A stretch of 64,000 nt of DNA from Clostridia bacterium (GCA_045645365.1 JAZRIR010000008.1:8912-72911); one strand, 5' to 3'. Shown: positions 26,975-48,587, counted from the stretch's first letter. Program-made: numbers and translations. The notes: generated from the letters alone by a model not told the origin.

Positions 26975-27994
26975 ATGAAAAGAAATTATTGGTTTTACAT
27001 TTTGGTTTTTGTGCTTATTGCACTGGTTGCTTTTTCCGTATTAAAAAACCAACAGATGGAGTACAATACACATATAGAGGGGGTTATGGATACCACTTCT
27101 GATATAACTGTTATTACTGGAGATGACGGTACAAAAATCATTAGTGATATAACAGATTTACTGTATAAGTATGACAAAATGTTCTCCCATACAAATGAAA
27201 ATAGTGATATATATAAGCTTAACAATTTTGAAGATGCCGAAATTTCTTGGGAAACCTACGATATTATAAAAAGATGTAGAGATTTTTATAATGATACAAA
27301 GGGTTCTTACGATATTACTGTAGGGACGGTGGCTGAATTATGGAATGAAACCTTCAAAACAGGTAAATTACCAGATTTTGAAGTATTAAGGTCTTGTGTC
27401 GAAAATGTTTCATATGAATCTCTAAAATTTACAGATAAAAAAGTTAAAATAACACAAAAAAATCAAAAAATCATTCTCGGTTCTGTTGTTAAAGGATATT
27501 TGACGGACATTATAAAGGAATATCTTGATGCTTCTAATGTAGATGATGCACTCATAAATCTTGGAGGAAATATATACGCAAGAGGCAAAAACAAGAATAA
27601 CAATTTATGGAATATAGGTGTTCAAGACCCTGTCAATGAAAATGAGCTATTGATGACGGTAAAGGTCAATGACAAGTTTGTTGTTACATCGGGTAATTAC
27701 ATAAGATGTGCGGATATTGATTCTGTAAGATACCATCATATTATAGACGCAAAAACAGGCTACCCTGTGTGGAATGAATTAAATAGTGTAACTATTATTT
27801 CAGATAGTGGATTTGTTGCCGATGCACTAAGCACCTCATGCTATATAATTGGATATGAAGAAAGCAAAAAGCTGTTGGAAAAGTACGATGTATATGCAGT
27901 ATTTGCAACAAATGAGAATAAGGTATTTTACTCTAAAGAGCTTGAAAATTTTATCGAAAAAATTAATAATAACTACGAATATATTCCATTTTAA
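26975..27994 (+). CDS. apbE: FAD:protein FMN transferase (ApbE family)
   Basis: 339 aa with an N-terminal membrane anchor. Motifs MDT...SDIYKLN..., GSVVKGY and HHIIDAKTGYP are typical of ApbE. Confidence 0.85.
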   Translation: MKRNYWFYILVFVLIALVAFSVLKNQQMEYNTHIEGVMDTTSDITVITGDDGTKIISDITDLLYKYDKMFSHTNENSDIYKLNNFEDAEISWETYDIIKRCRDFYNDTKGSYDITVGTVAELWNETFKTGKLPDFEVLRSCVENVSYESLKFTDKKVKITQKNQKIILGSVVKGYLTDIIKEYLDASNVDDALINLGGNIYARGKNKNNNLWNIGVQDPVNENELLMTVKVNDKFVVTSGNYIRCADIDSVRYHHIIDAKTGYPVWNELNSVTIISDSGFVADALSTSCYIIGYEESKKLLEKYDVYAVFATNENKVFYSKELENFIEKINNNYEYIPF

Positions 27995-28017
27995 TATAAA
28001 TAATGACAATTTTTTTT

Positions 28018-28071
28018 CCTTTGTCGGATTGTGGCATACGATTGCCTTAATTCGACAAAGGATTTTTTTTA
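28018..28071 (+). terminator. rho-independent terminator after apbE; its stem arms carry Spo0A-box-like sequences
   Basis: cctttgtcg (28018-28026) pairs with cgacaaagg (28053-28061), followed by T8. Confidence 0.75.
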
Positions 28072-28115
28072 TTGATTATATAAATAGATAATGTATAAAC
28101 AAAGGAGGAATTACT

Positions 28116-28451
28116 ATGGAAATAACATTGTTGTGTGAGAGAAGGACTGTAGTTGTCAAAATTCAGAGTGACCTTGACCACCATTTAGCAGTACAAATAA
28201 GAAGAGCGGTTGATGCAAAGATTAAAAGCTCCAATGCAATCAATATTATTTTTGATTTCAATATGGTAGATTTTATGGATAGTTCTGGAATAGGTATGTT
28301 AATGGGTAGATATAAAATGACAAGTATTCTTGGAGGAAAGGTAGTTGTTTTTGGAGTGAAAAAGCACATAAAGAGAATAATTGATATGTCGGGAATAGAT
28401 AAGATTATTAATATATGCGACACTTACGAAAATTCGCTTAAATTGATATAG
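28116..28451 (+). CDS. spoIIAA: anti-sigma-F factor antagonist (STAS domain)
   Basis: 111 aa with the phosphorylatable-Ser motif DFMDSSGIGMLMGR. It is the first gene of the spoIIA operon. Confidence 0.93.
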   Translation: MEITLLCERRTVVVKIQSDLDHHLAVQIRRAVDAKIKSSNAINIIFDFNMVDFMDSSGIGMLMGRYKMTSILGGKVVVFGVKKHIKRIIDMSGIDKIINICDTYENSLKLI

Positions 28452-28475
28452 TACTAAAGAAAGGATAAAATTGAA

Positions 28476-28901
28476 ATGGAAAATATAATGAAATTAGAAT
28501 TTGCAAATAAATCCTGTAACGAAAATCTTGCAAGATTGGCAGCTGCAGCCTTTGTGACACCGCTTGACCCCACCTGTGAGGAATTATCGGAAATAAAAAC
28601 AGCAATATCAGAAGCCGTGACAAATGCAATTATACACGGCTATGAGGACAGTATCGGAATGGTGAGGCTTGATGGAAGGATATACGGCAATATTGTTGAA
28701 TTTACAATAAGTGACAAGGGATGCGGTATTCAGGATGTTTCAAAGGCAATGGAACCTCTTTATACTGGTAAACCTGAGCTTGAGCGTTCAGGTCTTGGAT
28801 TTACTATTATGGAAAGCTTTATGGATAAAATTGAAGTAAAGAGTACGTTGGGAATAGGTACAGTAGTTAAAATGAAAAAGGTTATTAAAAATGACAGATA
28901 A
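28476..28901 (+). CDS. spoIIAB: anti-sigma-F factor (Ser kinase)
   Basis: 141 aa, GHKL-type, with EAVTNAIIHGY, DKGCGI and RSGLGFTIM. Confidence 0.94.
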   Translation: MENIMKLEFANKSCNENLARLAAAAFVTPLDPTCEELSEIKTAISEAVTNAIIHGYEDSIGMVRLDGRIYGNIVEFTISDKGCGIQDVSKAMEPLYTGKPELERSGLGFTIMESFMDKIEVKSTLGIGTVVKMKKVIKNDR

Positions 28902-29595
28902 TTTAACTTTACTAAAGAATTTACATAACGGAAATCAGGAATCGGAAAACGAACTGATAAAAAATAATATAGGACTTGTTGCCGGAATAGCAAGACGTTT
29001 TTATTCAAGTGGTTATGACAGTGAGGAGTTAATACAGATAGGATGTATGGGGCTCATTAAAGCCATTAGAAGATTTAATTTTGACTTTAATGTTCAGTTC
29101 TCCACGTACGCTGTTCCGTTGATTATAGGTGAAATAAAAAGATTTATAAGAGATGATGGCATAATAAAGGTCAGTAGGACTCATAAGGTTAATGCAATTA
29201 AAGCCAATATTGCAAAGGAAAAATTGCAACAAAAGTTAAAAAGAACTCCTACCATTTCTGAAATTGCAAGTGAAGCTTCTCTAACGGAAGAGGAAATCAT
29301 TGAGGCGATGGATGCAACCAATCCCCCCGAATCAATTCATCAAAGCTATGATGATAAAAATGAGTTGATTGATAAAATAGGTGTGGTTGAGGAAGAAGGA
29401 AAAATTATTAACAGAGTTTTGGTGAAAGAGGCGTTGAATATCTTAAATACCAGAGAGAAAAAGATTGTTGTAATGCGTTATTTTTACCAAAAAACTCAAA
29501 CAGAGATTTCAAAGGTCATAGGTGTTTCACAAGTTCAAGTATCCAGACTTGAAAAGGGAGCACTTATAAAAATGCATAAGTTTCTTGAAAGTTAA
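28891..29595 (+). CDS. sigF: sporulation sigma factor F
   Basis: 234 aa with sigma-70 regions 2-4 (FSTYAVPLIIGEIKRFIRDD; QTEISKVIGVSQVQVSRLEK). It sits immediately after spoIIAB. Confidence 0.94.
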   Translation: MTDNLTLLKNLHNGNQESENELIKNNIGLVAGIARRFYSSGYDSEELIQIGCMGLIKAIRRFNFDFNVQFSTYAVPLIIGEIKRFIRDDGIIKVSRTHKVNAIKANIAKEKLQQKLKRTPTISEIASEASLTEEEIIEAMDATNPPESIHQSYDDKNELIDKIGVVEEEGKIINRVLVKEALNILNTREKKIVVMRYFYQKTQTEISKVIGVSQVQVSRLEKGALIKMHKFLES

Positions 29596-29623
29596 AACAG
29601 TGTCGGAAAATTCCGACACTGTT
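29596..29623. terminator. bidirectional terminator between sigF (+) and the cotJC-type gene remnant (-)
   Basis: 12-bp perfect stem aacagtgtcgga / tccgacactgtt with A/T runs on both sides. Confidence 0.8.
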
Positions 29624-29626
29624 TAT

Positions 29627-29701
29627 TTATTTCTTATTGCCCATAAAGAACTTGTTTTTCTCGCACATTTTAGCCTGTAAATTGTTTAACGCTTCACCGA
29701 A
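29627..29701 (-). pseudogene. cotJC: cotJC-type Mn-catalase gene, C-terminal fragment (FGEALNNLQAKMCEKNKFFMGNKK*)
   Basis: The minus-strand translation continues exactly where the 43323-43656 fragment breaks (…VVHFQRFGEA|LNNLQ…). My recollection of B. subtilis CotJC ends …MRFREAVEILKEERDKKKIF. Confidence 0.85.
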
Positions 29702-29720
29702 GCTACTGTTTCAAACAAAC

Positions 29721-29755
29721 ACAGCCAAAGCCTGTTAAATTCAGGATTTGGCTGT
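29721..29755 (-). terminator. terminator of the minus-strand ATPase/Toprim operon
   Basis: acagccaaa / tttggctgt stem, followed on the minus strand by a T-rich tract, 40 nt downstream of the stop at 29795. Confidence 0.65.
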
Positions 29756-29794
29756 ATTGTATCTTTAAAATTTTGTGATTAAAATATAATGACT

Positions 29795-31039
29795 TTATAC
29801 GACACTGATGGGAATTTTTGCTCCCCATTGGTAGCATAATTCTGCTATCTCATTCCAATACTGCTGGAATTCTGGTGATAAGTTGTTTATAATGTCGAGA
29901 ATTTTGACTTCGGTTTCTTCTAATTCATAAATTTCTTTTTCAAGCGTTTCACTTGAATTTTCTAGATTTTTTATTAATTCTTTTTTTTGGTTTATATCAC
30001 TCTGTATTTCATTATTAAGGATTTTTTTATGAAATTTGGTAAAGGTGTTTCTTACCCCCGATAACAATCTTTGTTTTGGATTAGATTGTGTTGATGTACA
30101 AAATTCCTCTAAAACGGCAGCTAAAGTAGTACCACGTAAATACTTTGGAATTGAAGCGGTCAGATTGATTAAATCTTCAACAGTAAAATCTTCGGTTAAC
30201 AAATCATTTAACTGATTTCTTATATATTTTTTAACTTGGACATCATCAATTTTCAATCCACTCTTTATGTCACCATACAAATATGTTTCTTTACTCTGGT
30301 TGAATATATCTACTAGAATTGAATAGTGCTTTTTTTGGCTCGATTCTGTTTCCAAATAGTAATATATATAAGGAGGTATGAGATTCTCTCTTTCTCTAAC
30401 ATTCAGAATATGCATAGTTGTTACGTGCTCTCTAAAATATTTTTCATGAATATTCTCTAGTTCTAGTGCTGTTTTCCCTAAATTTGAACATTCGTTGACT
30501 TTATCGCTATCAGCTATAACCAAGCAAGGACTAGAATTAGATTCTAGATTTTCCAAATAAGTTTCGCTTATGTTTATTCCGCCGCCATTTATGTTTTCAA
30601 AACCTAATTCCCAGCTTAGGTTTTTTTGATTCATTATGAATTTAGTGAGAGAAGCATAAAACTTGCAATCTGATAAATCTTCACAAATTAATTTGGTTTT
30701 TTGGAGATTTGCAGAATCACTAAGAAATTTTATAGGAACATCGTAGATGTTTTTTGTTGTAGACGATAAAAGTATTTTGTCGTTGTTGCTCATAACTCTT
30801 ATATATGTATTAAAATTTTTTTTGATAGCTCCATATTGTGTGATTTTTGAAGCTAATTTTTTGAAGATTCTTTTGTTATATGAATCTAGTTGTTTGATTT
30901 TAGACAATTTTCTAAATAGATTTCTAGAAGCATAAACTATGTGCCTATTATTTATTGCACATTCCGCAATGTTTTGTAATGCTCTAATCGTCAAATCGTT
31001 TATTTCGTCTAGTATATTATCATCTAAAACTATAAGCAT
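29795..31039 (-). CDS. Toprim/DUF4435-like (OLD-type) putative nuclease partner of the upstream ATPase, with a C-terminal coiled coil
   Basis: 414 aa. Motifs in the order of OLD/DUF4435 Toprim domains: LICEDLSDCKFY (Glu motif), CLVIADSDK (DxD), HILNVRERENLIP (the …ENyl motif). It starts 6 nt after the ATPase stop. Confidence 0.5.
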   Translation of the reverse strand: MLIVLDDNILDEINDLTIRALQNIAECAINNRHIVYASRNLFRKLSKIKQLDSYNKRIFKKLASKITQYGAIKKNFNTYIRVMSNNDKILLSSTTKNIYDVPIKFLSDSANLQKTKLICEDLSDCKFYASLTKFIMNQKNLSWELGFENINGGGINISETYLENLESNSSPCLVIADSDKVNECSNLGKTALELENIHEKYFREHVTTMHILNVRERENLIPPYIYYYLETESSQKKHYSILVDIFNQSKETYLYGDIKSGLKIDDVQVKKYIRNQLNDLLTEDFTVEDLINLTASIPKYLRGTTLAAVLEEFCTSTQSNPKQRLLSGVRNTFTKFHKKILNNEIQSDINQKKELIKNLENSSETLEKEIYELEETEVKILDIINNLSPEFQQYWNEIAELCYQWGAKIPISVV

Positions 31040-31045
31040 TAAATA

Positions 31046-32638
31046 TTATGCCTCCTCAAAAAAGTCAATTGGCCATTCTTCCAAATAACCATCTTTATTA
31101 AACGCAACGTGTCTAATACAGCTTTCAAGACCTGTTGGTTGTTCAATCAACAACACATTTATACTATCTGGGCTTATATTCTTACTTTCAATCTGAAATC
31201 CAATTTGATTGATAATAGTTTCACTATGTGTTTCCAAAAAGAATTTTATATTTTTGTTGTGGGAAATGACATTCAATATTACCTTTAATAACTGTACTTG
31301 CATTTTAGGATGTAGATGCAATTCTGGCTGTTCAATAACAATTTGTACTTCATCTGAATTTTTTTTGTGTATATTTTTCCATAGAATTAATATTATTGGG
31401 AGGATTTGGGAATAACCAAATCCTGCATCTGCAATATTCGTTTCTATGTTATCATTAAGTAGTTTTACTGATACATGTTCTTCTATTATCTTTGTAGTAA
31501 TTTCAAAGCCAAAATTGTCATGTAGCCAATTGTTAAATTGAGAGAGTTCTTTTCGGCTCATACTCTGTAATATCATAGGAACGTTTTCGCCTCTAGCATC
31601 TACTTCTTGTATATTTAAACCTTGCCTTCGATAATACCGTTCAGCTGTTGCTCTAACAGGTGCAATATATTTAACGTTTTTGAAATAATTAGATAAATAA
31701 GCGTTGCAAGCATCAATTACATCTGGCATTAAAGTTTTAATGATATAAATAGATATTTGTTCTTTATGTAGTTTTATTTCTTCTAATATATCAGATATTG
31801 TTTTTTTGTTTAATTTTTTATAATTAGTAACGTCAAAAATCAAACTTATACCCTGATGTTTAGCTTTTGATAAGAAAGCTTCGATATTCTTATATTTTAG
31901 CTCAAAATTTAATTCATTTTTTAACAAGTACTCATATGTAGATATTGCATAAAAATGATTTTCGTCGGGCACCTTGCATCTATCGAAAACTTTTATAAGC
32001 AATGATATCAACTCATCTTTTAGTAAAGTTTTTTCAAGAGATTTCTCATAGTTAATCAATGCTCGCATCAGTAAATAAACAAATTCGTTATTATCTGAGT
32101 TTATTTTGGGAATAATATTACCAAATTCATCATCGTTTCCAATTTTAAATTTTTTAGTATATTTGTTATTAATATTTAAAACTGCAAAATTTGTGTTTCT
32201 ATTAAAAGCAATTTCGGTTTCAACGCCAAACACATTAATATATATCTTCTTTATTTCGTCTTTTTCGATATATATTTTTATTTTCATTTTCACACTTGCC
32301 TTTTCATTAGGCTTTATCATAAAAGGAAGAAAACCATATGCTAATTCTTTGTCAAAGTAATTTATGGTTGTACTAAAATCAAATGAAAAGCATATGGTAT
32401 CAGAATCAGGTTGAAATTTTGATTTGCTTTCATTATATCCTCCAAAATCGACATATCTACCATACCATAATATAGGTTCGGATAGCTTGGTTTCCAATGT
32501 TTGTTTGAATAGAGGGAAAACTCTCGCTAAAGTGCTTTTACCGCTACTGTTTTTTCCAACTGCAATTGTTAATGGTTTTAGTTCAATTTCACCAGTGTTT
32601 TTAAAGCATCTTAAGTTTTCAAGTTGTATTTTATCCAT
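31046..32638 (-). CDS. ABC-type (AAA_15/AAA_21-like) ATPase with a DUF3696-like C-terminus
   Basis: 530 aa with Walker A GKNSSGKST, ABC-signature/Walker B IVIEQPELHLHP, and H-loop ETHSE. The long insertion between Walker A and B is typical of OLD/AriA/GajA-class ATPases. Confidence 0.8.
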   Translation of the reverse strand: MDKIQLENLRCFKNTGEIELKPLTIAVGKNSSGKSTLARVFPLFKQTLETKLSEPILWYGRYVDFGGYNESKSKFQPDSDTICFSFDFSTTINYFDKELAYGFLPFMIKPNEKASVKMKIKIYIEKDEIKKIYINVFGVETEIAFNRNTNFAVLNINNKYTKKFKIGNDDEFGNIIPKINSDNNEFVYLLMRALINYEKSLEKTLLKDELISLLIKVFDRCKVPDENHFYAISTYEYLLKNELNFELKYKNIEAFLSKAKHQGISLIFDVTNYKKLNKKTISDILEEIKLHKEQISIYIIKTLMPDVIDACNAYLSNYFKNVKYIAPVRATAERYYRRQGLNIQEVDARGENVPMILQSMSRKELSQFNNWLHDNFGFEITTKIIEEHVSVKLLNDNIETNIADAGFGYSQILPIILILWKNIHKKNSDEVQIVIEQPELHLHPKMQVQLLKVILNVISHNKNIKFFLETHSETIINQIGFQIESKNISPDSINVLLIEQPTGLESCIRHVAFNKDGYLEEWPIDFFEEA

Positions 32639-32824
32639 AAAACAACCTCCTTGATTTTACAGCATTATATCACAAAATTCCTGAATTTTCAATATAATAT
32701 TAGAAAAATATTAATATTGTTTGTATAAATCCAATATTCTAATTATATATTATTTCTTTGAGTATGTATATAACATATTCCCGGCTTAACCGGCACATAG
32801 AAAAATGAAAGTGAGGATTTTTTA

Positions 32825-33937
32825 ATGAAAACAAACGAAAAAATAGTGTGCTCTGTATGTGGGATAGTCATAACAGAGGGAACAACAAAAAGCTTTGATG
32901 GTCAGAAAATGTGTGAGCATTGTTTTGATGAAAGGACAACAACTTGCGATAATTGCGGGGACAGAATATGGGGAGATAATGCAGAGGGCGATTCTAATTA
33001 TACATTATGCTCTCATTGTTACGAGTATAGTTATACAACTTGCGAGGAGTGCGGTAGGCTCATACACAATGAAGATGCTTTGTATGAAGATGGTGAGGAT
33101 TATCCTTATTGCAGAGATTGCTTTGAAAAGCTGAATGACAATTCAATAAAAAATTACAGTTATAAGCCTGAGCCGATTTTTTATGGCTCAGGCAATTTAT
33201 TTTATGGGGTTGAATTGGAAATAGACAAAGGCGGTGAAGATAACTTAAATGCACAAAAATTGATTGATATTGCAAATGAAAATGATGAAAGAATTTACTG
33301 TAAGCACGATGGCTCCATTAATAATGGATTTGAGATAGTGTCTCACCCCATGAGCCTTGAATATCACATCAATAATATGAATTGGCTTGATGTATTTGAA
33401 AAGGCTACTCAAATGGATTACCGCTCCCATAATACCTCTACTTGCGGTCTGCATATTCATTGTTCTCGCTCCGCTTTTGGAAAGGATTATGATGAACAGG
33501 AAAAGACTATCGGCAGAGTTGTATTCTTCGTTGAAAGACATTGGAATGAACTTGTTAAGTTTTCAAGACGCACACCTGAAAAACTTAACCACTGGGCAGC
33601 TAAATATGCGACCATATCCAATACAACAGAAGAAACTTATAAAAAGGCAAAGGATAAGCGTATGGGAAGATACGTAGCTGTTAATCTTGAAAATTATAAC
33701 ACAATAGAGTTTCGCTTGTTCAGAGGTACTCTCCGCTATAAAACATTTATTGCAACCTTACAGCTAGTTGATGAAATCTGCTACCAAGCAATTAATCTGT
33801 CGGATAAGGAAATGGAAGAATTGTCTTGGTCTGACTTTGTATCAAATATACTACCGAAAAAGTTTGAGCTTATAGAATACTTGAAATCAAAAAGGCTCTA
33901 TGTAAATGATGCCGTAATAGAAAGCGAGGAAATGTAA
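32825..33937 (+). CDS. amidoligase (glutamine-synthetase-like COOH-NH2 ligase, Amidoligase_2 family) with N-terminal multi-CxxC zinc ribbons
   Basis: 370 aa. The N-terminus has six CxxC pairs (CSVC…CEHC…CDNC…CSHC…CEEC…CRDC). The core has YGVELEI, HDGSINNGFEIVSHP, CGLHIHCS and IEFRLFRGT, as I recall for the amidoligase family described by Iyer et al. 2009. Confidence 0.75.
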   Translation: MKTNEKIVCSVCGIVITEGTTKSFDGQKMCEHCFDERTTTCDNCGDRIWGDNAEGDSNYTLCSHCYEYSYTTCEECGRLIHNEDALYEDGEDYPYCRDCFEKLNDNSIKNYSYKPEPIFYGSGNLFYGVELEIDKGGEDNLNAQKLIDIANENDERIYCKHDGSINNGFEIVSHPMSLEYHINNMNWLDVFEKATQMDYRSHNTSTCGLHIHCSRSAFGKDYDEQEKTIGRVVFFVERHWNELVKFSRRTPEKLNHWAAKYATISNTTEETYKKAKDKRMGRYVAVNLENYNTIEFRLFRGTLRYKTFIATLQLVDEICYQAINLSDKEMEELSWSDFVSNILPKKFELIEYLKSKRLYVNDAVIESEEM

Positions 33938-34846
33938 ATGTGTTGCTTATTTGGATTTTATAATTATAGCGGTCAGCCTATTAAGAATTTAAGTCATTTA
34001 ACAAATGCTCTCGCAGAGGAAGCAACGGTGAGAGGTACAGATGCAACGGGAATTGCCTATAACCATAAAGGTAAGCTTACTATACATAAAGAACCGAAAG
34101 CTGCTTTTCAGATTAATTTTAAGCATCCTGATGATATTGTTTCCGTTACAGGTCATACAAGGCATTCTACGCAAGGAAATAAAAACAAGAATTATAACAA
34201 TCACCCTTTTTCAGGACACTGCAAAAATATTAATTTTGCACTTGCACACAACGGTGTTTTAACCAACGATTCTAAACTGCGAAAGGAACTGCGATTACCT
34301 AATACAAAAATAGAAACCGACAGTTTTATTGCAGTTCAGCTTATCGAAAAGAATAAGATACTTAATAGCGAGAGTATAAAATTTATGTCGGAAAAGATAC
34401 GTGGAAGCTTCGCATTTTCGATTCTTGATAGCAACAACACTTTATGGCTTGTTCGTGGCGATAGTCCGCTATCACTTATACATATTCCGAGATACAAATT
34501 ATATGTATATGCTTCAACAGAAGAAATTCTTTATAAAGCATTAGTTGGGACAAAGCTTTTTGCAGAAATAAAGAAAGGAGCTTTTGAGGAACTTGAAATA
34601 AACTCCGGTGATATTTTTAATATATTAACTGACGGAACTATCGTTAATGATAAGTTTGATTATACAGACTATAGCTATTTCGGTCATTGCCAATGGTGGA
34701 ACTATAACACATCAAAAAAGAGTTACATTGATGATTTGAAATCTGTTGCTGCTTATCAGGGATATTCACCTGATGATGTGGATGCGTTACTACAAAATGG
34801 TTTTACTCCCGAAGAGGTTGAGGAATATCTGTATTGTATAGAATAA
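33938..34846 (+). CDS. class II (Ntn) glutamine amidotransferase-like protein
   Basis: 302 aa. It begins MCCLFGF… (Cys2 is the Ntn nucleophile), then has GTDATGIA, GHTRHSTQG and LAHNGVL motifs. The ATG abuts the amidoligase stop, which suggests translational coupling. Confidence 0.75.
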   Translation: MCCLFGFYNYSGQPIKNLSHLTNALAEEATVRGTDATGIAYNHKGKLTIHKEPKAAFQINFKHPDDIVSVTGHTRHSTQGNKNKNYNNHPFSGHCKNINFALAHNGVLTNDSKLRKELRLPNTKIETDSFIAVQLIEKNKILNSESIKFMSEKIRGSFAFSILDSNNTLWLVRGDSPLSLIHIPRYKLYVYASTEEILYKALVGTKLFAEIKKGAFEELEINSGDIFNILTDGTIVNDKFDYTDYSYFGHCQWWNYNTSKKSYIDDLKSVAAYQGYSPDDVDALLQNGFTPEEVEEYLYCIE

Positions 34847-34931
34847 TCGGAATTTTATAAGGAAGAATACAATGCATTATGCGTTTTACAATACATAGAA
34901 AAATGTATATAATTGTTTAAAAACGCAGGGG

Positions 34932-35192
34932 GTGGTTGCAATTGGTGTAGATGAGATTAATGCTTTAAATGAAGTATATAAAGAGATGGTTGACCTAATA
35001 GGCTATGACAATACTATGATACTTTATACATACTACAAAGGTCAGCAAATTACTTTCCCGATAAAGCTTTTTAAATCTGAATGTGTATGTGAAATGATTA
35101 AAAAGCAATATGATGGAACAAACGCAAAAAAATTAGCAAGAACTTATGGTTATTCAGAACGTTGGATAAAGGAATTGTTAAGAAATAAATAA
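34932..35192 (+). CDS. Mor-like small HTH transcription activator (tentative)
   Basis: 86 aa. …GQQITFPIKLF…YDGTNAKKLARTYGYSERWIKELL resembles the phage Mu Mor family. The start codon is uncertain. Confidence 0.45.
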   Translation: MVAIGVDEINALNEVYKEMVDLIGYDNTMILYTYYKGQQITFPIKLFKSECVCEMIKKQYDGTNAKKLARTYGYSERWIKELLRNK

Positions 35193-36000: not shown

Positions 36001-36594
36001 ATGAATAATAAGATTTTTTATTATGCACGAGTATCAAGCCGAGAACAAAATCTTGACAGACAGATTGAAGCTTTTAAAAAGCTCGGTGCAGATGAACGTG
36101 AAATTATATGTGATAAGGAAAGCGGAAAGGACTTTAACAGAAGCGGTTATCAGGCGCTTAAAAACACAATGCTTCGCAGTGGTGATACGTTGATTGTAAA
36201 ATCTCTTGACCGCCTTTCGAGGAATAAGAGTGATATAAAAACCGAGCTTCAATATTTTAAGGATAATAATATCCGTTTAAAAGTCATTGACCTGCCTACA
36301 ACGATGATTGATTTGCCCGAAGGACAGGAATGGGTGTTTGATATGGTTAATAACATCCTGATTGAAGTGCTTGGAACAATCGCAGAACAGGAACGGCAGA
36401 CTATTCGCAAACGGCAACGAGAAGGTATAGAGGCTGCTAAAGCAAAAGGTAAACATCTCGGCAGACCGAAGACTGTAAAGTCCGACAATTGGGATGAAGT
36501 TGTATCAGATTGGAAACGTGGAAACATAACAGCACGCCAAGCATACACAATGCTTGACGTTTCAAAATCCGTTTTTTATAGACTTGTTAAGTAA
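36001..36594 (+). CDS. small serine recombinase (resolvase/invertase)
   Basis: 197 aa with the catalytic motif YYARVSSREQNLDRQ, SLDRLSRN, and a C-terminal HTH. Confidence 0.9.
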   Translation: MNNKIFYYARVSSREQNLDRQIEAFKKLGADEREIICDKESGKDFNRSGYQALKNTMLRSGDTLIVKSLDRLSRNKSDIKTELQYFKDNNIRLKVIDLPTTMIDLPEGQEWVFDMVNNILIEVLGTIAEQERQTIRKRQREGIEAAKAKGKHLGRPKTVKSDNWDEVVSDWKRGNITARQAYTMLDVSKSVFYRLVK

Positions 36595-36784
36595 ACAGAA
36601 ATAATCATTAGAAGCTGATGTCATGTTTTGTTTTGTTGACTTATGCTAAAATTGAGAGTATAATTAGTATGGTATAAATGTGTAATTTCATTTCACGGTA
36701 ATCTCTTTTAGTCATTCGCACATCATGAAAGAGAAAAACTAATTGCTATTTGTGCTGGTACGGAGCAGCAGAATGGAGATTAAT

Positions 36785-38032
36785 ATGAAAATAGAAATTA
36801 AAAAAGAATTTAATATCCTTTCAAGAAAACAATTTGACGTAATGGTTGAAAAATTAAAAAGAGAAAAATCAAATGAAATAAGTAATACAAGCATAGAATA
36901 TATAAAAGAGCAAATCAAAAAGATATTTAAAGAATGTTGTATAGCTGCAAAGATTGCTTTCTCAGTTGAACAAACTAATGAAATAATAAATTTGATATTA
37001 TTAACTTACATTGATTTAATTATTGAAAATGATAAAAGTACATTTGAATCTATATTTCAATATGTTAGAAATATAGAACCCGAGAATTCCGATATTATAA
37101 ATGAAATAACAAAAAAATTAAAATACGGAATAAACAATTACAAATTGAATGTTTCAATATATAATCAATATGCAAAAACGAATGATTTTTTGTATTCACG
37201 TGGTAAATATCATACAAATCACGAAAGAGATAAAAAAGTTTTTAGCACAAGAATCCCTCATAATTTAATTAAGTTGGAATTTGCTGAAGCATTTTCTAAT
37301 GGATGTCTACTAATATATGAATTGATGTACAAAAACAAAAATCCATTTACAACAACACATAGAGATAAAAATAATATATTATTTTCTGCATATCAAAATT
37401 TGTGTTGCTATATGGATGAAATATGTAAATGCAGCACATCAAAAGAAATAGTATTAAAAAATGTATTTTTTTGGAAGTTTGAAAAAACATATAGGTTTGT
37501 TTTCATTTCAATTTTAGCAAAGTATATTTTTGAACAGAATATAGAAGCGTCAGCATTAAAACTACCAAAGTTATTATATAATTACTATTTTCCGTATCAT
37601 TTTAAGGATGATAACACCGGTGTTTTTTGCGGTTCGCCTATTATTTCATATTATGAGGAAATAATTAAATACTCATTTGAAACAAAAAATACTGTTTTAG
37701 ATGTTGAAGCTCTTGAAATACAAAGAGAAATGATGGCATATACATTATCAATACTTTGTGTGTTATTTCCTCCAACCGAAACAAGGTCACATAAATTATT
37801 TTATAATAGAGAAACAAATAAATTTGATTTTGATGCTGTTGGGGATTTCTTGATTAAAGACTGCAAAATACCAGTATTATTATCAGAATATAAGGAGCTT
37901 ATTGAGGAAAATATTAATAATAATTTATATGTAAAGACTATCCAAGAGCTTTTACTAAATAATGATGTTGTTGAACAAAAAATATTGAGTAATTCAGCAA
38001 AGAAAATGAAAAGCTTTAAAAAAACAAATTAA
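36785..38032 (+). CDS. hypothetical protein (415 aa), no recognisable domain
   Basis: Long ORF with a GGAGA RBS before the ATG at 36785 and its own terminator. Asn/Lys/Ile-rich. Confidence 0.6.
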   Translation: MKIEIKKEFNILSRKQFDVMVEKLKREKSNEISNTSIEYIKEQIKKIFKECCIAAKIAFSVEQTNEIINLILLTYIDLIIENDKSTFESIFQYVRNIEPENSDIINEITKKLKYGINNYKLNVSIYNQYAKTNDFLYSRGKYHTNHERDKKVFSTRIPHNLIKLEFAEAFSNGCLLIYELMYKNKNPFTTTHRDKNNILFSAYQNLCCYMDEICKCSTSKEIVLKNVFFWKFEKTYRFVFISILAKYIFEQNIEASALKLPKLLYNYYFPYHFKDDNTGVFCGSPIISYYEEIIKYSFETKNTVLDVEALEIQREMMAYTLSILCVLFPPTETRSHKLFYNRETNKFDFDAVGDFLIKDCKIPVLLSEYKELIEENINNNLYVKTIQELLLNNDVVEQKILSNSAKKMKSFKKTN

Positions 38033-38043
38033 TAAACAATTAA

Positions 38044-38085
38044 ATCAGACTGTCTCGCATAAAGCCGGGACAGTCTGATTTTTAT
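38044..38085 (+). terminator. rho-independent terminator
   Basis: atcagactgtc / gacagtctgat stem followed by T5. Confidence 0.8.
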
Positions 38086-38319
38086 ATATTTCAAAGAATA
38101 AAAATACCCAAAAACCATTGAAAACACAAGGTTTTTTCAATGCACATTTTACCTCCTGTTTTTTTATCCATTATATGCTATAGTTGATACATAATACTTT
38201 TAGGAGGTTTTCTATATGAAATAAAAAAAATAAAACTTGTACGGAAATTTTGTATTGGATTATATTAGGACAATACACAGAAAAAATGTATAACACAGTA
38301 TTTTTAGGAGGGAATCTAT

Positions 38320-40134
38320 ATGTCATATGATTCATATTATCATTCGATTTGGAACCACGACGCAGAAACGGAAAGTACACTGCAAGTTTCAATTGGTGTA
38401 AAGCCTAGGCTTAATACACAATCTATTGATACAGAAGAAAATGTTAAATTATTTGAAATTGACGAAAAGATAAGATATATATCGGAATACTTTGCATCTA
38501 ATCACCTAATTCCACCAGGACATGTTGATTTGTTGCAATGTGGTACCGGTAAAGGTAAGACTTATAGAACCACAAAAGGATTTTTGAATGAAGCACGGAG
38601 GTGTAATTACAATATAATGCTAATTCTGCCAAGGAATATGATAGTACAACAAGTTTTGTCAGAGATGTTGTCTAAAGAAGTTAGTTTTAGTTTTGATAAT
38701 GGTGTGTATCATATAGATAATCTGACTATATGCACTTATCAAAAACTCTATAATGAACTTAAAAAGAAAAAACACATAGACAATACAATTTTTGGCAGAG
38801 AATATCGTGCGGTCATATTTGACGAATCGCATGTAATATTAGAAGACTCGTTATTTTCTGAAGCAGCAAATTTTATACTTGATGAAATGTTTGACTTTTT
38901 TAGAACTAAAGTTTCGTATTATTTCTTATCGGCAACAATGAAGTATGTTGAAAGAATAATTTATGAAACAGCTTGCGAAAAGCTAAAAAAAGTTAGTCAA
39001 ACTTATATGGGTGTTACAACAAAGAACCCGCCATTTTTTAGAAAATTTGTATTTCCTAACACCTATGAGAAATATAATGTCACTTATTTAGATACTGAAA
39101 ATGAAATAGTAAAATTGTATAATGAATTACCTGACAGTCGAAAACTATTAATTTTTGTATCATCAAAACAAATGGGAGAAAGATTATCATCATTAATGCC
39201 TGATTCAGTTTTCTTGTTTGCGGAAAATGATGATGAAAAGCTGTCAGATGAAGCACAGCTACAGTATTCAAAGATTAAGGAGTTATCATCATTTGATTGT
39301 AAAGCTTTAATTACCACTAAATTGCTTGATGCCGGAGTTAATTTCAAAATGAAAGACTTACGGGATATAGTAATTAATATTGAAGGCGGTGAAGATGAAT
39401 TCATTCAAATTGTCGGCAGGAGGAGGGCAATAGATGATGCTATGATAAACCTACATATTATGAAAATGGATTCTGATTACTTCAGGAAGAGAAGGTTTAA
39501 CTGTATTCAAAAATTAAATGCTATAAGTGATATTAAGAGATGTAATAAATGCATGAAGCAAAATAGAATTTATGCTGAAAGATTTAATATAGAAATAAAA
39601 CTATCTGGGTGTAAAACCTGCTATAAAAATGCGAAGAAAAAGTATTATTTAGAACCCAAAAATTATATGTTAATACAAGGCTTATTTACTGTTGATGGAC
39701 AAAATGTTGTAATCAATAAAATGGCTGAAGCAAAACTTAAACTAATGGTTGATTTTTATGATAGCATTCTTGATGATTTCAATACCGTTGGCGAACAAGC
39801 ATATATTATTAGACAATTGTCATGGCTTGGACTTGAAAATACATACAGCGAGTCGAATTATTTTTCAAAGGAGAGTATTCCTGTACAACTTATGGACTTA
39901 TCAAATATGCTTGAAGAATACCAGGAAAAAGAAATGAATGATGAGCTGCAGGCAGATTTTAGGCAGGAATTTCAAGAAATTGCAATTAAACTAAAGCTAT
40001 ACTCAAAAAGGAGTGAGAATAACATAGGACTAAACAAGATTAATCAAATTATAGAAGAAGCAAAATTATCATATAAAGTTGAATCACAAAGTACAAACAA
40101 CGGGACTGCTTGGAAGGTAATAAAGAAACTTTGA
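38320..40134 (+). CDS. SF2 (DExH-type) helicase-family protein
   Basis: 604 aa with motif I LLQCGTGKGKTY, motif II VIFDESH, motif III-like LSATM, TTKLLDAGVNF, and motif VI QIVGRRRA. A CxxC…CxxC cluster follows the core. Confidence 0.75.
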   Translation: MSYDSYYHSIWNHDAETESTLQVSIGVKPRLNTQSIDTEENVKLFEIDEKIRYISEYFASNHLIPPGHVDLLQCGTGKGKTYRTTKGFLNEARRCNYNIMLILPRNMIVQQVLSEMLSKEVSFSFDNGVYHIDNLTICTYQKLYNELKKKKHIDNTIFGREYRAVIFDESHVILEDSLFSEAANFILDEMFDFFRTKVSYYFLSATMKYVERIIYETACEKLKKVSQTYMGVTTKNPPFFRKFVFPNTYEKYNVTYLDTENEIVKLYNELPDSRKLLIFVSSKQMGERLSSLMPDSVFLFAENDDEKLSDEAQLQYSKIKELSSFDCKALITTKLLDAGVNFKMKDLRDIVINIEGGEDEFIQIVGRRRAIDDAMINLHIMKMDSDYFRKRRFNCIQKLNAISDIKRCNKCMKQNRIYAERFNIEIKLSGCKTCYKNAKKKYYLEPKNYMLIQGLFTVDGQNVVINKMAEAKLKLMVDFYDSILDDFNTVGEQAYIIRQLSWLGLENTYSESNYFSKESIPVQLMDLSNMLEEYQEKEMNDELQADFRQEFQEIAIKLKLYSKRSENNIGLNKINQIIEEAKLSYKVESQSTNNGTAWKVIKKL

Positions 40135-40154
40135 TAAAAAAGGAAGTGATTCCA

Positions 40155-40811
40155 ATGAAAAAAAGCATATTAAAATTTGATAGGGTTTCGGGAAACACCT
40201 ATCACACTATTATCAAAAATAATCACGGACGAAAGATATATTTAAGAGTTAATCGTTTTGATGAAACAATTACAATTTGCGATTGTTTCTATATTGACAG
40301 ACCAATGAGGAATGGCAACAGAGCCATTCCTCAAAAGTGGACAACCATTAAATGTAATTTTAATAGTCTAATTGATGTGTTGACAGGTGAGTTGGATAAG
40401 CATTTTTACGGAGTTGAGTTTTCTGAAAAGGAAACCAATACATCAGCAGAAGAATATATAACGCACTGTTTGAAGAGTAGTAAAAAATTTAGATTTCTGA
40501 TACTAGTTGACTGTGATGGTGTTTTGAAAACAAGGTTAAAAAACAGGGTGCACCGAACTATCTATCTTGAAATTAAACAAAACGTGGATAAAGGTCTGAT
40601 AAAGAATTGTCACTATTGCGATAGGAGCTATAAGCAAAACAATCGGGCTGTAACGCCTTTCGACTTAAAAACCATATACTTTGACTACAGCACGAAAAAG
40701 GTGCTTGAAATTATAAATAACGAGCTTAATTGCGATTTCACAGATGTTGTTGTTACAAGTGATACATTTAACTTCGTGGAAAGTAATATCCCTATATGCG
40801 GTTCGATATAA
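40155..40811 (+). CDS. hypothetical protein made of two tandem copies of an uncharacterised domain of about 85-90 aa
   Basis: Self-alignment by eye: GRKIYLRVNRFDETITICDCFYIDRPMRNGNRAIPQKWTTIKCNFNSLIDVLTGELDKHF matches HRTIYLEIKQNVDKGLIKNCHYCDRSYKQNNRAVTPFDLKTIYFDYSTKKVLEIINNELNCDF. RBS AGGAAG precedes the ATG at 40155. Confidence 0.6.
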   Translation: MKKSILKFDRVSGNTYHTIIKNNHGRKIYLRVNRFDETITICDCFYIDRPMRNGNRAIPQKWTTIKCNFNSLIDVLTGELDKHFYGVEFSEKETNTSAEEYITHCLKSSKKFRFLILVDCDGVLKTRLKNRVHRTIYLEIKQNVDKGLIKNCHYCDRSYKQNNRAVTPFDLKTIYFDYSTKKVLEIINNELNCDFTDVVVTSDTFNFVESNIPICGSI

Positions 40812-41022: not shown

Positions 41023-42543
41023 ATGTCTATTGCTCTTTATGCAAGAAAGTCCATAGAACGTGAAAACAGTATTTCATGCGAAACGCAGCTTGAATATTGT
41101 AAATCTATGATAAAGCCTGATGAACAGGCGGAAAAAATCGTTACATTTGTTGACAATGGATTTTCGGGCGGTAATGTTGACCGTGACGGATTTCAGAAAA
41201 TGATGCGTCAGGTCGAGCGTGGGAAAATAAGCAAAATTATTGTTTACCGACTTGACAGAATAAGCAGAAGCTTATCAGATTTCGTTAATATTTTGAATAC
41301 ACTAAAAAAGTACAATGTAAAATTTATAAGCTCGCAGGAATTGTTTGATACATCAAGTCCTTATGGTGAAATGATTGTCAAAATACTTATGATTTTTGCA
41401 GAATTTGAAAGGCAAAGTATTATTGAAAGAGTAACGCAGGCTTATGCCCACAGGAGCGAAATGGGCTTTTATATGGGCGGTAGAAGACCGTACGGTTTCA
41501 CCTTGACAGATACAATTATTCACAATATTAAGACAAAAATGTTCTCTCCTATAGTGGAAGAAATTGAACAGCTAAAATATATATTTGAAGCATACTCAGT
41601 TCCGGGAATAACACTTCGAAGACTTATGGATAATCTTATTGATAATGGTATTCTTCCTACTGTCGGAAGTTGGTCAACAGGAAAACTATCTACAATTCTG
41701 AAAAATCCAATTTATGTTAAAGCAGATAATGATGTGTATGAGTATCTCTTAAAACATAATACAAATATTATAAGCGATATTTCAGAATTTGACGGAGTAC
41801 ACGGACTGCAGATTTATGGTAAAACAAAACATTCCGCAGATGATTGGTCAGATATGAAAGCTGTGGTTATGTCCCACGAAGGTATTATAAATTCTGATGT
41901 TTGGATTAACTGTCAGAAAAAGCTTGCAAAAAACAAGCAGATAGGAAATGCTATAAGCAATACAACAAGCTGGCTTGGTGGTAAAATTGTATGTAAAAAC
42001 TGCAGACGGACAATGACGGTTACAAAGGGTGGTAAACGTAAAGACGGCTCTCAAACAAGATATTTTAGTTGTACAGGAAAATCCCATAATCGCATCTGCA
42101 AAGGCACAAGTAAGCCTGTATATGCTGATAGTTTGGAGGATATGGTTTACGAGCTTGTTTCCGAGAAGCTTGAAACATTAAGAAGTTGTCGCAAAAAAAT
42201 ATCAACAGACAATTCTAATCAGATAAATCTTCTCAAAAACCGTATCAGTGAAATAAAAAAGGCACAGGAAAAGCTTGTAAACCTACTGATGAATGACACT
42301 ATTGAAGCAGATATGATTAATCTTCTAAATGAAAAAGCAAAAAAGCTTGCAGAAGAAAAAGCTGATATTCTTTCTAAAATTGATGCTCTTGAAAACGAAG
42401 AAAGTGAAATAATAAGTGCCATCAATTTATCAAAGAAATGGAGAACAGCAAACTATGAGGAGCGAAAGGCTGTATGCAATATATTGATACATAAAATACT
42501 GATAGATGAATCAGGAAATTGCGAAGTCGTATGGAATATATAA
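41023..42543 (+). CDS. large serine recombinase (integrase of element A)
   Basis: 506 aa with the resolvase catalytic domain (IALYARKSIERENSISCETQ, YRLDRISRS), a recombinase domain, a Cys-rich zinc ribbon (CKNC…CTGKSHNRIC) and a C-terminal coiled coil. Confidence 0.92.
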   Translation: MSIALYARKSIERENSISCETQLEYCKSMIKPDEQAEKIVTFVDNGFSGGNVDRDGFQKMMRQVERGKISKIIVYRLDRISRSLSDFVNILNTLKKYNVKFISSQELFDTSSPYGEMIVKILMIFAEFERQSIIERVTQAYAHRSEMGFYMGGRRPYGFTLTDTIIHNIKTKMFSPIVEEIEQLKYIFEAYSVPGITLRRLMDNLIDNGILPTVGSWSTGKLSTILKNPIYVKADNDVYEYLLKHNTNIISDISEFDGVHGLQIYGKTKHSADDWSDMKAVVMSHEGIINSDVWINCQKKLAKNKQIGNAISNTTSWLGGKIVCKNCRRTMTVTKGGKRKDGSQTRYFSCTGKSHNRICKGTSKPVYADSLEDMVYELVSEKLETLRSCRKKISTDNSNQINLLKNRISEIKKAQEKLVNLLMNDTIEADMINLLNEKAKKLAEEKADILSKIDALENEESEIISAINLSKKWRTANYEERKAVCNILIHKILIDESGNCEVVWNI

Positions 42544-42583: not shown

Positions 42584-42622
42584 TTATAATATAAAAAAAG
42601 AGAGTTGAAAGGAGCGGAATTT

Positions 42623-42925
42623 ATGTCGGATAAGATTTATACAGTAGATGATATTAAAATGGTTTTACACCCTATTTTTAGTGGTTATAGCGTAAAAAAA
42701 GCTATTCTTTTCGGTTCGTATGTAAAAGGAATGGCGAACTCAAGAAGCGATATAGATTTGCTTCTTGATAGCGGTTTAAGAGGTTTGAGTTTTGTTGGTC
42801 TTATTGAGGATATTCGCACAGCACTTGATAAAGAAGTAGATGTTTTTGATGTTTCACACATTGTACCACAATCCCGAATATCGTCAGAAATTTTAAAAGA
42901 CGGGGTAACAATCTATGAAGAATAA
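42623..42925 (+). CDS. minimal nucleotidyltransferase (MNT/MntA-type antitoxin)
   Basis: About 100 aa with the pol-beta-type motif GSYVKGMANSRSDIDLLLD. Confidence 0.85.
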   Translation: MSDKIYTVDDIKMVLHPIFSGYSVKKAILFGSYVKGMANSRSDIDLLLDSGLRGLSFVGLIEDIRTALDKEVDVFDVSHIVPQSRISSEILKDGVTIYEE

Positions 42926-43247
42926 AATTATAATTGAAAAAATACTCAAATATATTCAAAAAGTTTTATCCTATGTTGAAGGAGCAGACTACGATAGCTT
43001 TGTCGAAAATACAATGCTTGTTGAAGCCTGTGTTTTTAATCTCGGACAAATAGGTGAACTTGCAAACAAAATTGACAAAGAGTTTGAGGAACAATATAAT
43101 CAAATTCCGTGGAGAGTATTATACGGATTAAGAAATAAAATAGTTCACGATTATGAGGGTGTTAATTTAACTCTTATATGGGAAATACTCGAAACTGATT
43201 TGTCTGAGCTTAATAGCCAATTAGATGAATTATATAATAAAATTTAG
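42915..43247 (+). CDS. HEPN (DUF86/HepT-type) toxin
   Basis: 110 aa with the Rx4H motif LRNKIVHDY. It overlaps the MNT gene by 11 nt. Confidence 0.85.
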   Translation: MKNKIIIEKILKYIQKVLSYVEGADYDSFVENTMLVEACVFNLGQIGELANKIDKEFEEQYNQIPWRVLYGLRNKIVHDYEGVNLTLIWEILETDLSELNSQLDELYNKI

Positions 43248-43280
43248 GTGCTGGAAATTTAATTTCAGCACCTTTGATAT
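43246..43280 (+). terminator. terminator hairpin at the right end of element A
   Basis: ggtgctggaaatt / aatttcagcacc stem followed by a T-rich tract. Confidence 0.65.
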
Positions 43281-43322
43281 TTATAGAAAATCTGTTTGAA
43301 TTAGTCAGTTTTGCTTCACCAA

Positions 43323-47278: not shown

Positions 47279-47572
47279 TTCAACCTTATTTATCTTTTGT
47301 CGTTAAATAGTGGTATCAGAAAATTAAGATTAAAGAAATCTGCAAATATTTTATTTTGACATCAAGAAAATGTTGAAATTACGCCATTTTGAGATTTTAA
47401 AATTTTCATCGTAATTTTGTGTTGAGATGACAAGGTTTTTATAAATTTTAATAAAATTTATGGTTAAGAGAGTTAAAAAAGAGAGTTCATATATTTTAAG
47501 TTATGGGTACACCAATCCTATACAGGTAACTTACAGGCTTGGATGTATTCATTAAATGTGTTCATAAGGTAG

Positions 47573-48172: not shown

Positions 48173-48284
48173 ATTAAAAAATTTTAACTAAAATCTCAAA
48201 AAATTTACTGATGAGAACAAAACGGACTAAAATGCACACAGTTACCTTAATTTAAGTATCAATTCGTAAGGGAGGGTACTTAAA

Positions 48285-48503: not shown

Positions 48504-48587
48504 GGGCTGAGATATCGGAGTGGTTGCGTTATAATACAGTGACCACTCCACAATACAAAAAGAAAAATTAGTTAGGAGAAGAGATTT

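Follow-up and report, generated by a model that had tools for sequence, protein, structure and literature searches.

A two-gene cassette encoding an NsnB-like ABC ATPase and an OLD-like Toprim protein, a probable stand-alone anti-phage module on mobile DNA of a Clostridia bacterium

A 64,000-nucleotide stretch of DNA from a Clostridia bacterium (GCA_045645365.1, JAZRIR010000008.1:8912-72911; hereafter the window, with positions counted from its first letter) encodes on the minus strand, at 29795-32638, an ATP-binding cassette (ABC) ATPase of 530 residues and a partner protein of 414 residues. Modules comprised of an ABC ATPase and a nuclease (OLD, Gabija, PARIS, Septu, Lamassu and Menshen) are among the commonest designs of bacterial immunity. 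Judged from its sequence, the 530-residue protein is an ABC ATPase of the OLD/GajA/AriA type, specifically like NsnB of the Menshen system or like PDC-M55A of PADLOC. The 414-residue partner is, with high confidence, an OLD-like Toprim nuclease, and it is not a member of DUF4435/AriB. The sequence evidence indicates that the pair is probably a stand-alone two-gene operon on mobile DNA that serves as an anti-phage or abortive-infection module, most likely related to PARIS, OLD and Menshen and a member of none of them.

Open reading frame (ORF) calling confirmed the two minus-strand genes reported in an initial annotation of this DNA, with protein lengths of 530 and 414 residues and a gap of 6 nucleotides (nt). 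The genes and their candidate expression signals are as follows.

31046-32638, minus strand: gene 1, the 530-residue OLD/NsnB-type ABC ATPase (ORF, stop codon included).
29795-31039, minus strand: gene 2, the 414-residue partner, with an N-terminal adaptor-like domain, a probable OLD-like Toprim nuclease and a C-terminal helical region (ORF, stop codon included).
32664-32692, minus strand: promoter-like site TTGAAA-17-TATAAT with a TG extension, approximately 25 nt upstream of the ATPase ATG.
29713-29764, minus strand: terminator-like hairpin followed by the U-rich run UGUUUGUUUG, 30-80 nt past the partner stop codon.

The ATPase stop codon (31046-31048) and the partner ATG (31039-31037) delimit the intergenic gap. 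A Shine-Dalgarno sequence, AAGGAGG, precedes the ATG of gene 1, and that of gene 2, GAGGAGG, is embedded in the end of the gene 1 coding sequence, 10 nt ahead of the partner ATG. The promoter-like site was the top-scoring site in a promoter scan, with 11 of 12 matches; the number of such sites in the region was not above that in shuffled sequence, and the assignment as a promoter is drawn from its position. The hairpin had a predicted RNA folding energy of -23.7 kcal/mol (z = -5.85), and none of 200 shuffled sequences folded as well. With a promoter-like site, a Shine-Dalgarno sequence for each gene and a terminator hairpin of its own, the pair looks like a self-contained transcription unit of approximately 3 kb. 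The GC content at the pair was 0.29 versus 0.33-0.35 in the flanks.

The ATPase matched the Pfam families AAA_15 (3.9e-24) and AAA_21 (4.4e-12), results supporting its initial placement in the group of the OLD, GajA and AriA ATPases. More than 3,860 proteins were found as homologues at E ≤ 1e-10. The best PADLOC models were PDC-M55A (1.2e-49), Menshen NsnB (1.3e-46) and HEC-03B (3.6e-30), and models labelled AriA matched only at 1.3e-28 and 5.7e-13. The lengths of the AriA-labelled models (373 and 304 positions) match those of the generic Pfam families AAA_15 (374) and AAA_21 (304). Matches to NCBIfam families and to PDB sequences were confined to the P-loop or Walker B segments; those to the NCBIfam models for MADS3, retron Eco8 and the PtuA effector were rejected, covering P-loop and Walker B regions only and falling far under the cut-offs. 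Conservation of the motifs was determined from an alignment of the best 120 homologues, to which the invariant residues listed below refer.

32531-32557, minus strand: Walker A motif GKNSSGKST, residues 28-36, with lysine K34 (G28, N30, G33, K34 and S35 invariant).
31631-31660, minus strand: PVRATAERYY, residues 327-336, with arginine at the position of the Q-loop glutamine (P327, R329 and R334 invariant).
31406-31429, minus strand: DAGFGYSQ, residues 404-411, with GxG replacing SGG of the ABC signature (D404, G406, G408 and Q411 invariant).
31307-31342, minus strand: Walker B and D-loop IVIEQPELHLHP, residues 433-444, with an E-Q dyad replacing D-E (E436, Q437, P438, E439, H443 and P444 invariant).
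31220-31234, minus strand: H-loop ETHSE, residues 469-473 (E469, T470, H471 and S472 invariant).
31049-31177, minus strand: DUF3696-like C-terminal tail, residues 488-530 (Pfam DUF3696, E = 0.018, under the family cut-off).

The consensus of the ATPase family reads G-x-N-S-x-G-K-S, P-x-R-A-x-A-x-R-Y-Y, D-x-G-F-G-Y-S-Q, h-h-h-E-Q-P-E-x-H-L-H-P and E-T-H-S in order, and several of the homologues bear a precomputed PF12476 annotation. In ABC ATPases, replacement of E by Q at the Walker B position permits binding of ATP and cripples its hydrolysis. Departures of the same kind have been reported for NsnB, in which the Q-loop glutamine is replaced by arginine, SGG of the signature is replaced by GxG, the D-E dyad is altered to E-N and a DUF3696 helix is present (Li et al., PMC12065111). 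The Q-to-R and SGG-to-GxG replacements, an altered Walker B dyad and a DUF3696-type tail are thus common to NsnB and the ATPase described here, the dyad being E-N in the former and E-Q in the latter family.

The partner gave no significant match to Pfam or NCBIfam families and no match to PDB sequences. A word-based search with the partner found just five relatives. When a profile of these sequences was used to search 1.84 billion cluster representatives, 1,686 proteins were recovered at E ≤ 0.001, of which 1,222 had E ≤ 1e-10, the size of the family being counted in clusters at 50% identity. Most members are 360-410 residues long and match the profile from residue 1 to approximately residue 270-280. 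In an alignment of 70 homologues with a mean identity of 26%, residues E120, D124, G154, D177, D179 and E218 were invariant, and H33, Y128, G152, G153, S178, G188, T190, E216, N219, D257, K259 and G261 were conserved in at least 90% of the sequences. The AlphaFold2 model of the partner (mean predicted local distance difference test, pLDDT, 90.7; predicted template modelling score 0.89) displayed Toprim topology, and the conserved motifs CEDLSDCKFY (residues 119-128), VIADSDK (174-180) and RERENLIP (215-222) fall within the Toprim-like region. The features of this region are given below with the residues of Burkholderia OLD (BpOLD) to which they would correspond.

30152-30703, minus strand: Toprim-like catalytic region, residues 113-296, four strands followed by helices (AlphaFold2 model, with profile and Foldseek links).
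30668-30682, minus strand: E120-x3-D124 (CEDLSDC) at the end of strand b1, both residues invariant; by position corresponding to BpOLD E400/E404.
30503-30511, minus strand: D177-S-D179 (DxD) at the end of strand b3, both residues invariant; corresponding to BpOLD D455/D457.
30386-30394, minus strand: E216-R-E218 in RERENL, putative ligands of metal B, E218 invariant; by order approximating BpOLD T506/E508.
30263-30265, minus strand: K259 in GDIKSG, candidate catalytic lysine, conserved in at least 90% of homologues; a presumed analogue of BpOLD K562.

The strands of the predicted model comprise residues 115-119 (b1), 147-151 (b2), 172-176 (b3) and 207-211 (b4). E120 follows b1 and the DxD motif follows b3, the layout by which Toprim domains are defined. 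Helices of the model carry R-E-x-E-N (215-219) and G-D-I-K-S-G (256-261), and a loop at residues 297-319 is disordered. Catalysis by Burkholderia OLD involves E400, D455 and D457 as ligands of metal A, E404, T506 and E508 as ligands of metal B, and K562 (PMC6755086). Judged by position, the order and spacing of E120/D124, D177/D179, E216/E218 and K259 appear to reproduce this catalytic pattern. All motifs quoted in the initial annotation (GKNSSGKST, IVIEQPELHLHP, ETHSE, CEDLSDCKFY, VIADSDK and RERENLIP) were found in the two proteins, and they are not chance matches since the key residues are invariant in the 120 ATPase and 70 partner homologues; the Walker A lysine, numbered there as K35, is K34.

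Comparisons of the partner with OLD proteins were in agreement with the motifs. The top PDB match of the partner model in a Foldseek search was Thermus OLD (6p74, E = 0.018), and the C-terminal region of Burkholderia OLD (6nk8) was matched with a probability of 0.84 and a TM-score of 0.42. Among the 50 PDB matches listed, five were structures of OLD or GajA (6p74, 6nk8, 6njw and GajA 8x5i and 8u7i), and none of these five ranked lower than 35th. The consensus of the partner family matched Pfam OLD-like_TOPRIM (PF20469) at E = 0.001 with 20.0 bits, the gathering cut-off being 23.2, and matched the PADLOC GajA model PDLC04168 at 1.6e-5, residues 118-305 aligning with positions 363-547 of 570, so that the alignment spans the Toprim half of GajA. 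Among the 70 family members, three matched the GajA model (best 1.9e-6) and one matched PF20469 (E = 0.0014). The homologue in Pseudomonas phage 62-2 is annotated as 'putative OLD family nuclease'. Foldseek comparison of the full model with the BFVD viral structures gave no match; a search for homologues of the P2 Old C-terminus yielded only four fragments, and tblastn against plasmids yielded none. These links to the OLD Toprim domain are all weak and none passes a strict threshold, yet they are mutually consistent.

Assignment of the partner to DUF4435/AriB is rejected since no match to DUF4435, RloB or DUF4276 was obtained at any threshold tried. DUF4435 was not matched by the protein (E ≤ 1), by the 70 relatives (E ≤ 0.01) or by the family consensus (E ≤ 10), and neither RloB nor DUF4276 was matched by the protein, its 70 relatives or the consensus. 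Thus, where the initial annotation had described an OLD-type Toprim/DUF4435 domain, the Toprim part is upheld by the invariant motifs, the predicted topology and the weak OLD and GajA links, and the DUF4435 part is not.

The Toprim-like region is flanked by two additional regions.

30704-31039, minus strand: N-terminal alpha/beta domain, residues 1-112, weakly PIN-like (domain model pLDDT 94.6).
29798-30082, minus strand: C-terminal helical region, residues 320-414, ending in a conserved W..WG motif (AlphaFold2 model).

The extension of approximately 110 residues at the N-terminus had been recognized initially as additional to a Toprim domain; it is a feature of the whole family since most of the 1,686 members match the profile from residue 1. 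Foldseek matches to this domain were all above E = 0.001. The list included, in addition to the best match discussed below, four PIN structures (SMG6, EST1A and two VapC) and Trm10. The conserved acidic set of PIN catalytic residues is absent from the domain, in which H33 alone is conserved. The C-terminal helical extension, also remarked upon initially, is present and was found across the family. Its predicted helices (residues 330-341, 344-358, 364-385 and 389-406) have pLDDT values of 95-98, with residues 324-406 well packed, and its only Pfam matches were sub-threshold and of coiled-coil type.

Searches with both profiles (hmmsearch) located the partner gene directly downstream of the ATPase gene, on the same strand and with a gap or overlap of a few nt, in 17 of 17 loci, bearing out the expectation that the two genes are conserved as neighbours in other genomes. 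The loci include three metagenomic relatives of the partner, seven genome loci, one plasmid, one phage and three loci chosen from the ATPase side, the last from B. subtilis, Pseudomonas germanica and the archaeon Methanococcus maripaludis. The hosts comprise Clostridia, Planococcus, Streptococcus mitis, Paenibacillaceae, Bacillus subtilis, a B. thuringiensis plasmid, Pseudomonas germanica, Methanococcus maripaludis and a Pseudomonas filamentous phage. No gene encoding NsnA (ParB-DUF262) was found in the 17 loci, as determined by scanning eight upstream ORFs across five related loci for ParB and DUF262 domains and by inspection of the called genes elsewhere.

The genes flanking the pair differ between loci and are unrelated. 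In Streptococcus mitis SK597 (L009 4356-7035, NZ_AEDV01000055.1) the pair lies between purE/purK and purB, with no recombinase within the 13 kb examined; in Eubacteriales metagenome-assembled genomes it is flanked by hydrogenase genes, and in Planococcus by a GNAT acetyltransferase gene. Other loci place it beside defence genes. On the 552-kb B. thuringiensis plasmid pH3-552 (L013 3325-10082, CP052064.1) a complete Lamassu system (LmuA 9.2e-206, LmuB 8e-191) lies 1.2 kb from the pair and forms with it a small defence island, and the pair adjoins a type I restriction-modification system in Methanococcus and a TIR/SEFIR gene in Pseudomonas germanica. In Pseudomonas phage 62-2 (L012 2342-4978, OR621022.1, Tubulavirales), a 12.6-kb filamentous phage of P. 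aeruginosa in which the ATPase is annotated as 'DNA double-strand break repair ATPase', the pair occupies one end of the genome by repressor and excisionase genes. The closest relative is in locus L001, with 75% protein identity. DNA homology with L001 extends through the terminator hairpin and ends at window position 29675, beyond which the flanks differ. Homology that ends just past the terminator is what would be expected of a mobile cassette.

In the window the pair lies approximately 80 nt past the terminator (29595-29624) of the chromosomal spoIIAA-spoIIAB-sigF operon and is, as initially annotated, divergent from an amidoligase/glutamine amidotransferase pair at 32825-34846 on the plus strand. 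These two genes are followed by those for a Mor-like regulator, a small resolvase, a helicase, a large serine recombinase and an MNT/HepT pair. The recombinase genes are located as follows.

36001-36594: small resolvase.
41023-42543: large serine recombinase.

Metagenome contigs covering window positions 27-46 kb were short pieces of low depth in which no empty site, element-end junction or attachment (att) site was found. In a goat gut metagenome (run X1) the depth was approximately 3-5 over 29536-33339 versus 0.6-1.6 over the chromosomal flank at 27000-29535. These depths, which are very low and derive from short pieces, hint that the cassette is in more genomes than the host sigF locus.

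PDC-M55, a PADLOC candidate, was the best database match of both proteins. PDC-M55A matched the ATPase clearly (1.2e-49); the match of PDC-M55B to the partner was weak (2.2e-5) and spanned the Toprim core only (90 positions, 163-252 of 315). PDC-M55B matched the partner family consensus at 1.5e-9 and 54 of the 70 relatives (best 6.4e-13) and, apart from the GajA model, was the sole defence model matching the partner. The alignment offsets imply that approximately 100-160 residues precede the DxD motif of PDC-M55B too. Some members of the partner family, such as those from S. mitis and the filamentous phage, did not match PDC-M55B at 1e-5, and the partner is approximately 100 residues longer, owing to the C-terminal helical region. 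The PDC-x systems of PADLOC are unpublished candidates (PMC11811056). A literature search found no description or validation of PDC-M55, and a search combining DUF3696 with phage found no description of the ATPase-partner pair. The OLD proteins of classes 1 and 2 (P2 Old and Thermus scotoductus OLD; Burkholderia OLD and GajA) have the same type of ABC ATPase, and the catalytic order E-x3-[DE] ... DxD ... [TE]xE ... K of OLD is the same in the partner, with residue equivalences that are presumptive. OLD nucleases are fused to the ATPase on one polypeptide, whereas two ORFs encode them here, split in all 17 loci. Further differences from the OLD family are the lack of a helicase partner, the additional N-terminal domain of the nuclease and a similarity that is under the family thresholds. 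In design, the pair sits between Menshen, PARIS and OLD/Gabija.

Likeness to PARIS is evident in the overall design, in which adjacent but separate genes on mobile elements encode an ABC ATPase and, after it, a Toprim protein, and in the presumed logic of a sensor ATPase that holds and then frees the Toprim effector. The pair could accordingly be viewed as a divergent PARIS subtype (AriA-AriB, 'class 4 OLD'), with a hexameric ATPase that senses a phage anti-restriction protein and frees a DUF4435 Toprim tRNase. The AriA-labelled models match the ATPase, and P2 OLD and AriB are now known as tRNases. The AAA_15/AAA_21 type of ATPase beside an effector is generic, however, being found in Septu, Menshen and others as well, and the ATPase matches PDC-M55A and NsnB better by approximately 20 orders of magnitude than it does the AriA-labelled models. 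AriB carries DUF4435, which the partner lacks, and no AriB model was among its PADLOC matches. The Toprim glutamate of AriB is E26 (PMC12409363), and AriB has no N-terminal domain, whereas the corresponding E120 of the partner lies behind a separately folding domain of 112 residues. Contact between AriA and AriB is reported to be via the ATPase dimer surface and not the DUF3696 tail, and no PARIS structure was among the 50 Foldseek matches listed. The pair is not a member of PARIS, and descent as a divergent subtype is regarded as quite unlikely; the description 'PARIS/RloAB style' given initially holds for the split arrangement of ATPase and Toprim genes as a general design and fails for membership in AriB, DUF4435 or RloB. 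Menshen (Millman 2022) offers a further comparison. In addition to the match to NsnB, with its unusual motif substitutions and DUF3696-type tail, NsnC is the closest architectural parallel to the partner, in that a nuclease follows a small alpha/beta domain at the N-terminus, and Toprim-type NsnC effectors of the RloB or DUF4276 families are known (PMC12065111). Hence the pair might be a Menshen system that has lost the NsnA sensor and persists as a decayed or non-functional remnant. Menshen requires NsnA (ParB-DUF262 with ParBDB) encoded upstream, whereas in all 17 loci the upstream genes are unrelated, of housekeeping or other function, the upstream neighbour in the window being the divergent amidoligase gene. 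The NsnC nucleases are of the RloB, DUF4276 or BECR type, none of the first two being matched by the partner, which has instead an OLD-like nuclease and the extra C-terminal helical region; the N-terminal domain of NsnC is an inactive PIN-like domain, a likeness that is weak in the partner. All of the catalytic residues are retained and the family, at 1,686 representative clusters, is a large one, results which argue for a stable, selected two-gene system and not decay, and make a remnant very unlikely.

Residence on mobile DNA is also what would be expected of an addiction or toxin-antitoxin-like module, or one of competition between elements, in which the nuclease is a toxin, the ATPase its inhibitor and the outcome either stabilization of the element or exclusion of rivals. 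The recombinases and the MNT/HepT toxin-antitoxin pair nearby, carriage by a plasmid and a filamentous prophage, and the tight coupling of the genes with the nuclease downstream are all consistent with this role. It is considered unlikely given that the pair occurs, too, at places in chromosomes where no element is evident, such as purK-purB of S. mitis, and adjoins bona fide defence systems, and that the characterized relatives (OLD, Gabija, PARIS, Septu and Menshen) are all anti-phage. A housekeeping factor of DNA repair or the cell cycle, OLD/Rad50-like and not part of a conflict system, is the remaining alternative. The archaeal OLD-family ATPase Cran1 is reported to function in cell-cycle progression and not defence (PMC12796447), and the repair annotation of one homologue points the same way. 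The patchy distribution, the different location in every genome, the occurrence of the cassette on a phage, a plasmid and an integrative element with GC content low relative to the flanks, and the presence of close relatives (75% identity) in unrelated contexts make a housekeeping role very improbable.

What the analysis shows directly is the identity of the domains, the conservation of the catalytic residues, the strict pairing of the genes, the operon signals and the occurrence in mobile and defence-island settings. For the favoured explanation, a stand-alone anti-phage or abortive-infection module, a mechanism can be drawn by analogy with Menshen NsnB-NsnC, PARIS and Gabija, from which we infer complex formation, the trigger, the substrate and the defence phenotype. 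The ATPase would bind ATP and oligomerize. It may hydrolyse ATP slowly or in an altered manner, given that E-Q is invariant in the family at the position of the normal Walker B D-E pair. In AlphaFold 3 models of NsnB4-NsnC2, two DUF3696 helices sandwich the inactive PIN domain (PMC12065111); similarly, the DUF3696-like C-terminal tails of the ATPase may clamp the N-terminal domain of the nuclease and keep the nuclease inactive. The ATPase itself is proposed to sense a phage-derived trigger because there is no NsnA sensor gene. A nucleotide-dependent change would then release or activate the two-metal Toprim nuclease, which may cut nucleic acid, either tRNA or DNA, and halt growth of the phage, the host cell or both. 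Precedents exist for either substrate, as Burkholderia OLD cuts DNA (PMC6755086), AriB cuts tRNA (PMC12409363) and P2 Old is reported to be a tRNase.

Several results weigh against this explanation. The Foldseek search of the partner model against the PDB returned nothing at E ≤ 0.001, the family consensus scored under the PF20469 cut-off, and the 70-sequence profile searched against PDB chain sequences found no OLD protein and nothing meaningful. Alignment of the family profile with the single P2 Old sequence (hhalign) gave E = 0.25, which is not significant, and covered the region of Toprim strand b1 only. For the N-terminal domain the best TM-score was a weak 0.46, to the (inactive) PIN domain of SMG5 (2hwy), and the DUF3696 match of the ATPase tail is sub-threshold (E = 0.018). 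Docking of the tails is modelled on AlphaFold 3 predictions made for another system. The invariant E-Q of Walker B could mean that ATP is not hydrolysed in the usual manner. The literature search found no experimentally tested member of the ATPase-partner family, and carriage on mobile elements is as readily explained by addiction or a toxin-antitoxin function as by defence.

Additional features were observed in the remainder of the window. The plus-strand genes at 32825-35192 encode an Amidoligase_2 protein with a cysteine-rich N-terminal region resembling LIM domains or zinc ribbons, a class II glutamine amidotransferase and then a Mor-family regulator; in locus L003 a Mor gene is also divergent beside the ATPase-Toprim pair. 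Between the small resolvase and the large serine recombinase, three ORFs of 429, 604 and 233 residues are present at 36743-40811 on the plus strand. The 604-residue product is a DEAD/ResIII helicase with a weak Cas3-like PADLOC match (4.7e-9), and the 429- and 233-residue products gave no family match. Directly after the large serine recombinase, at 42605-43247 on the plus strand, a gene encoding an MNT-type nucleotidyltransferase (Polbeta/NTP_transf_2; PADLOC PDC-S09) overlaps one encoding a HepT-like RNase, the two forming a HepT/MNT toxin-antitoxin pair. At 43210-43629 on the minus strand is an internal fragment of a manganese catalase gene, a pseudogene remnant corresponding to positions 72-190 of 284 of Pfam Mn_catalase. 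Splitting of a sporulation gene by a serine-recombinase element was considered and rejected; the manganese catalase fragment is internal, bounded by stop codons upstream and unrelated sequence downstream, and the left junction showed no counterpart to it. Encoded at 46742-50270 on the plus strand are two small resolvase/helix-turn-helix proteins, of which the first matched weakly, together with a 560-residue large serine recombinase; this second recombinase cluster suggests the start of a second mobile element or prophage.

The ATPase-partner pair is unsurprising in principle, yet it is abundant and poorly captured by current tools. The cassette is compact (approximately 3 kb), numbers approximately 1,700 clusters at 50% identity and has no entry among the curated families of Pfam and NCBIfam; tools that search for defence systems detect it only marginally, and it is therefore probably under-counted in censuses of defence systems. 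How the ATPases of such modules sense infection and control their nucleases is still being worked out, and the cassette offers a minimal two-protein system in which to ask whether an NsnB-type ATPase senses phage without NsnA. It is also suited to probing the role of a natural E-Q Walker B dyad and to asking whether OLD-like Toprim effectors beyond PARIS and P2 Old target tRNA, and the copies carried by a Pseudomonas filamentous prophage and by a B. thuringiensis megaplasmid bear on studies of phage-host range in those organisms. More tentatively, and with somewhat less than even confidence, the pair may represent a widespread stand-alone immune system, an 'NsnA-less Menshen' or a fifth split OLD, in which an E-Q ATPase would act as sensor and ATP-bound latch and a dead PIN-like adaptor would hold the nuclease. 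If so, the NsnB-NsnC core could function without a ParB-type sensor, and the Menshen, PARIS and OLD/Gabija architectures would be joined in one modular family.

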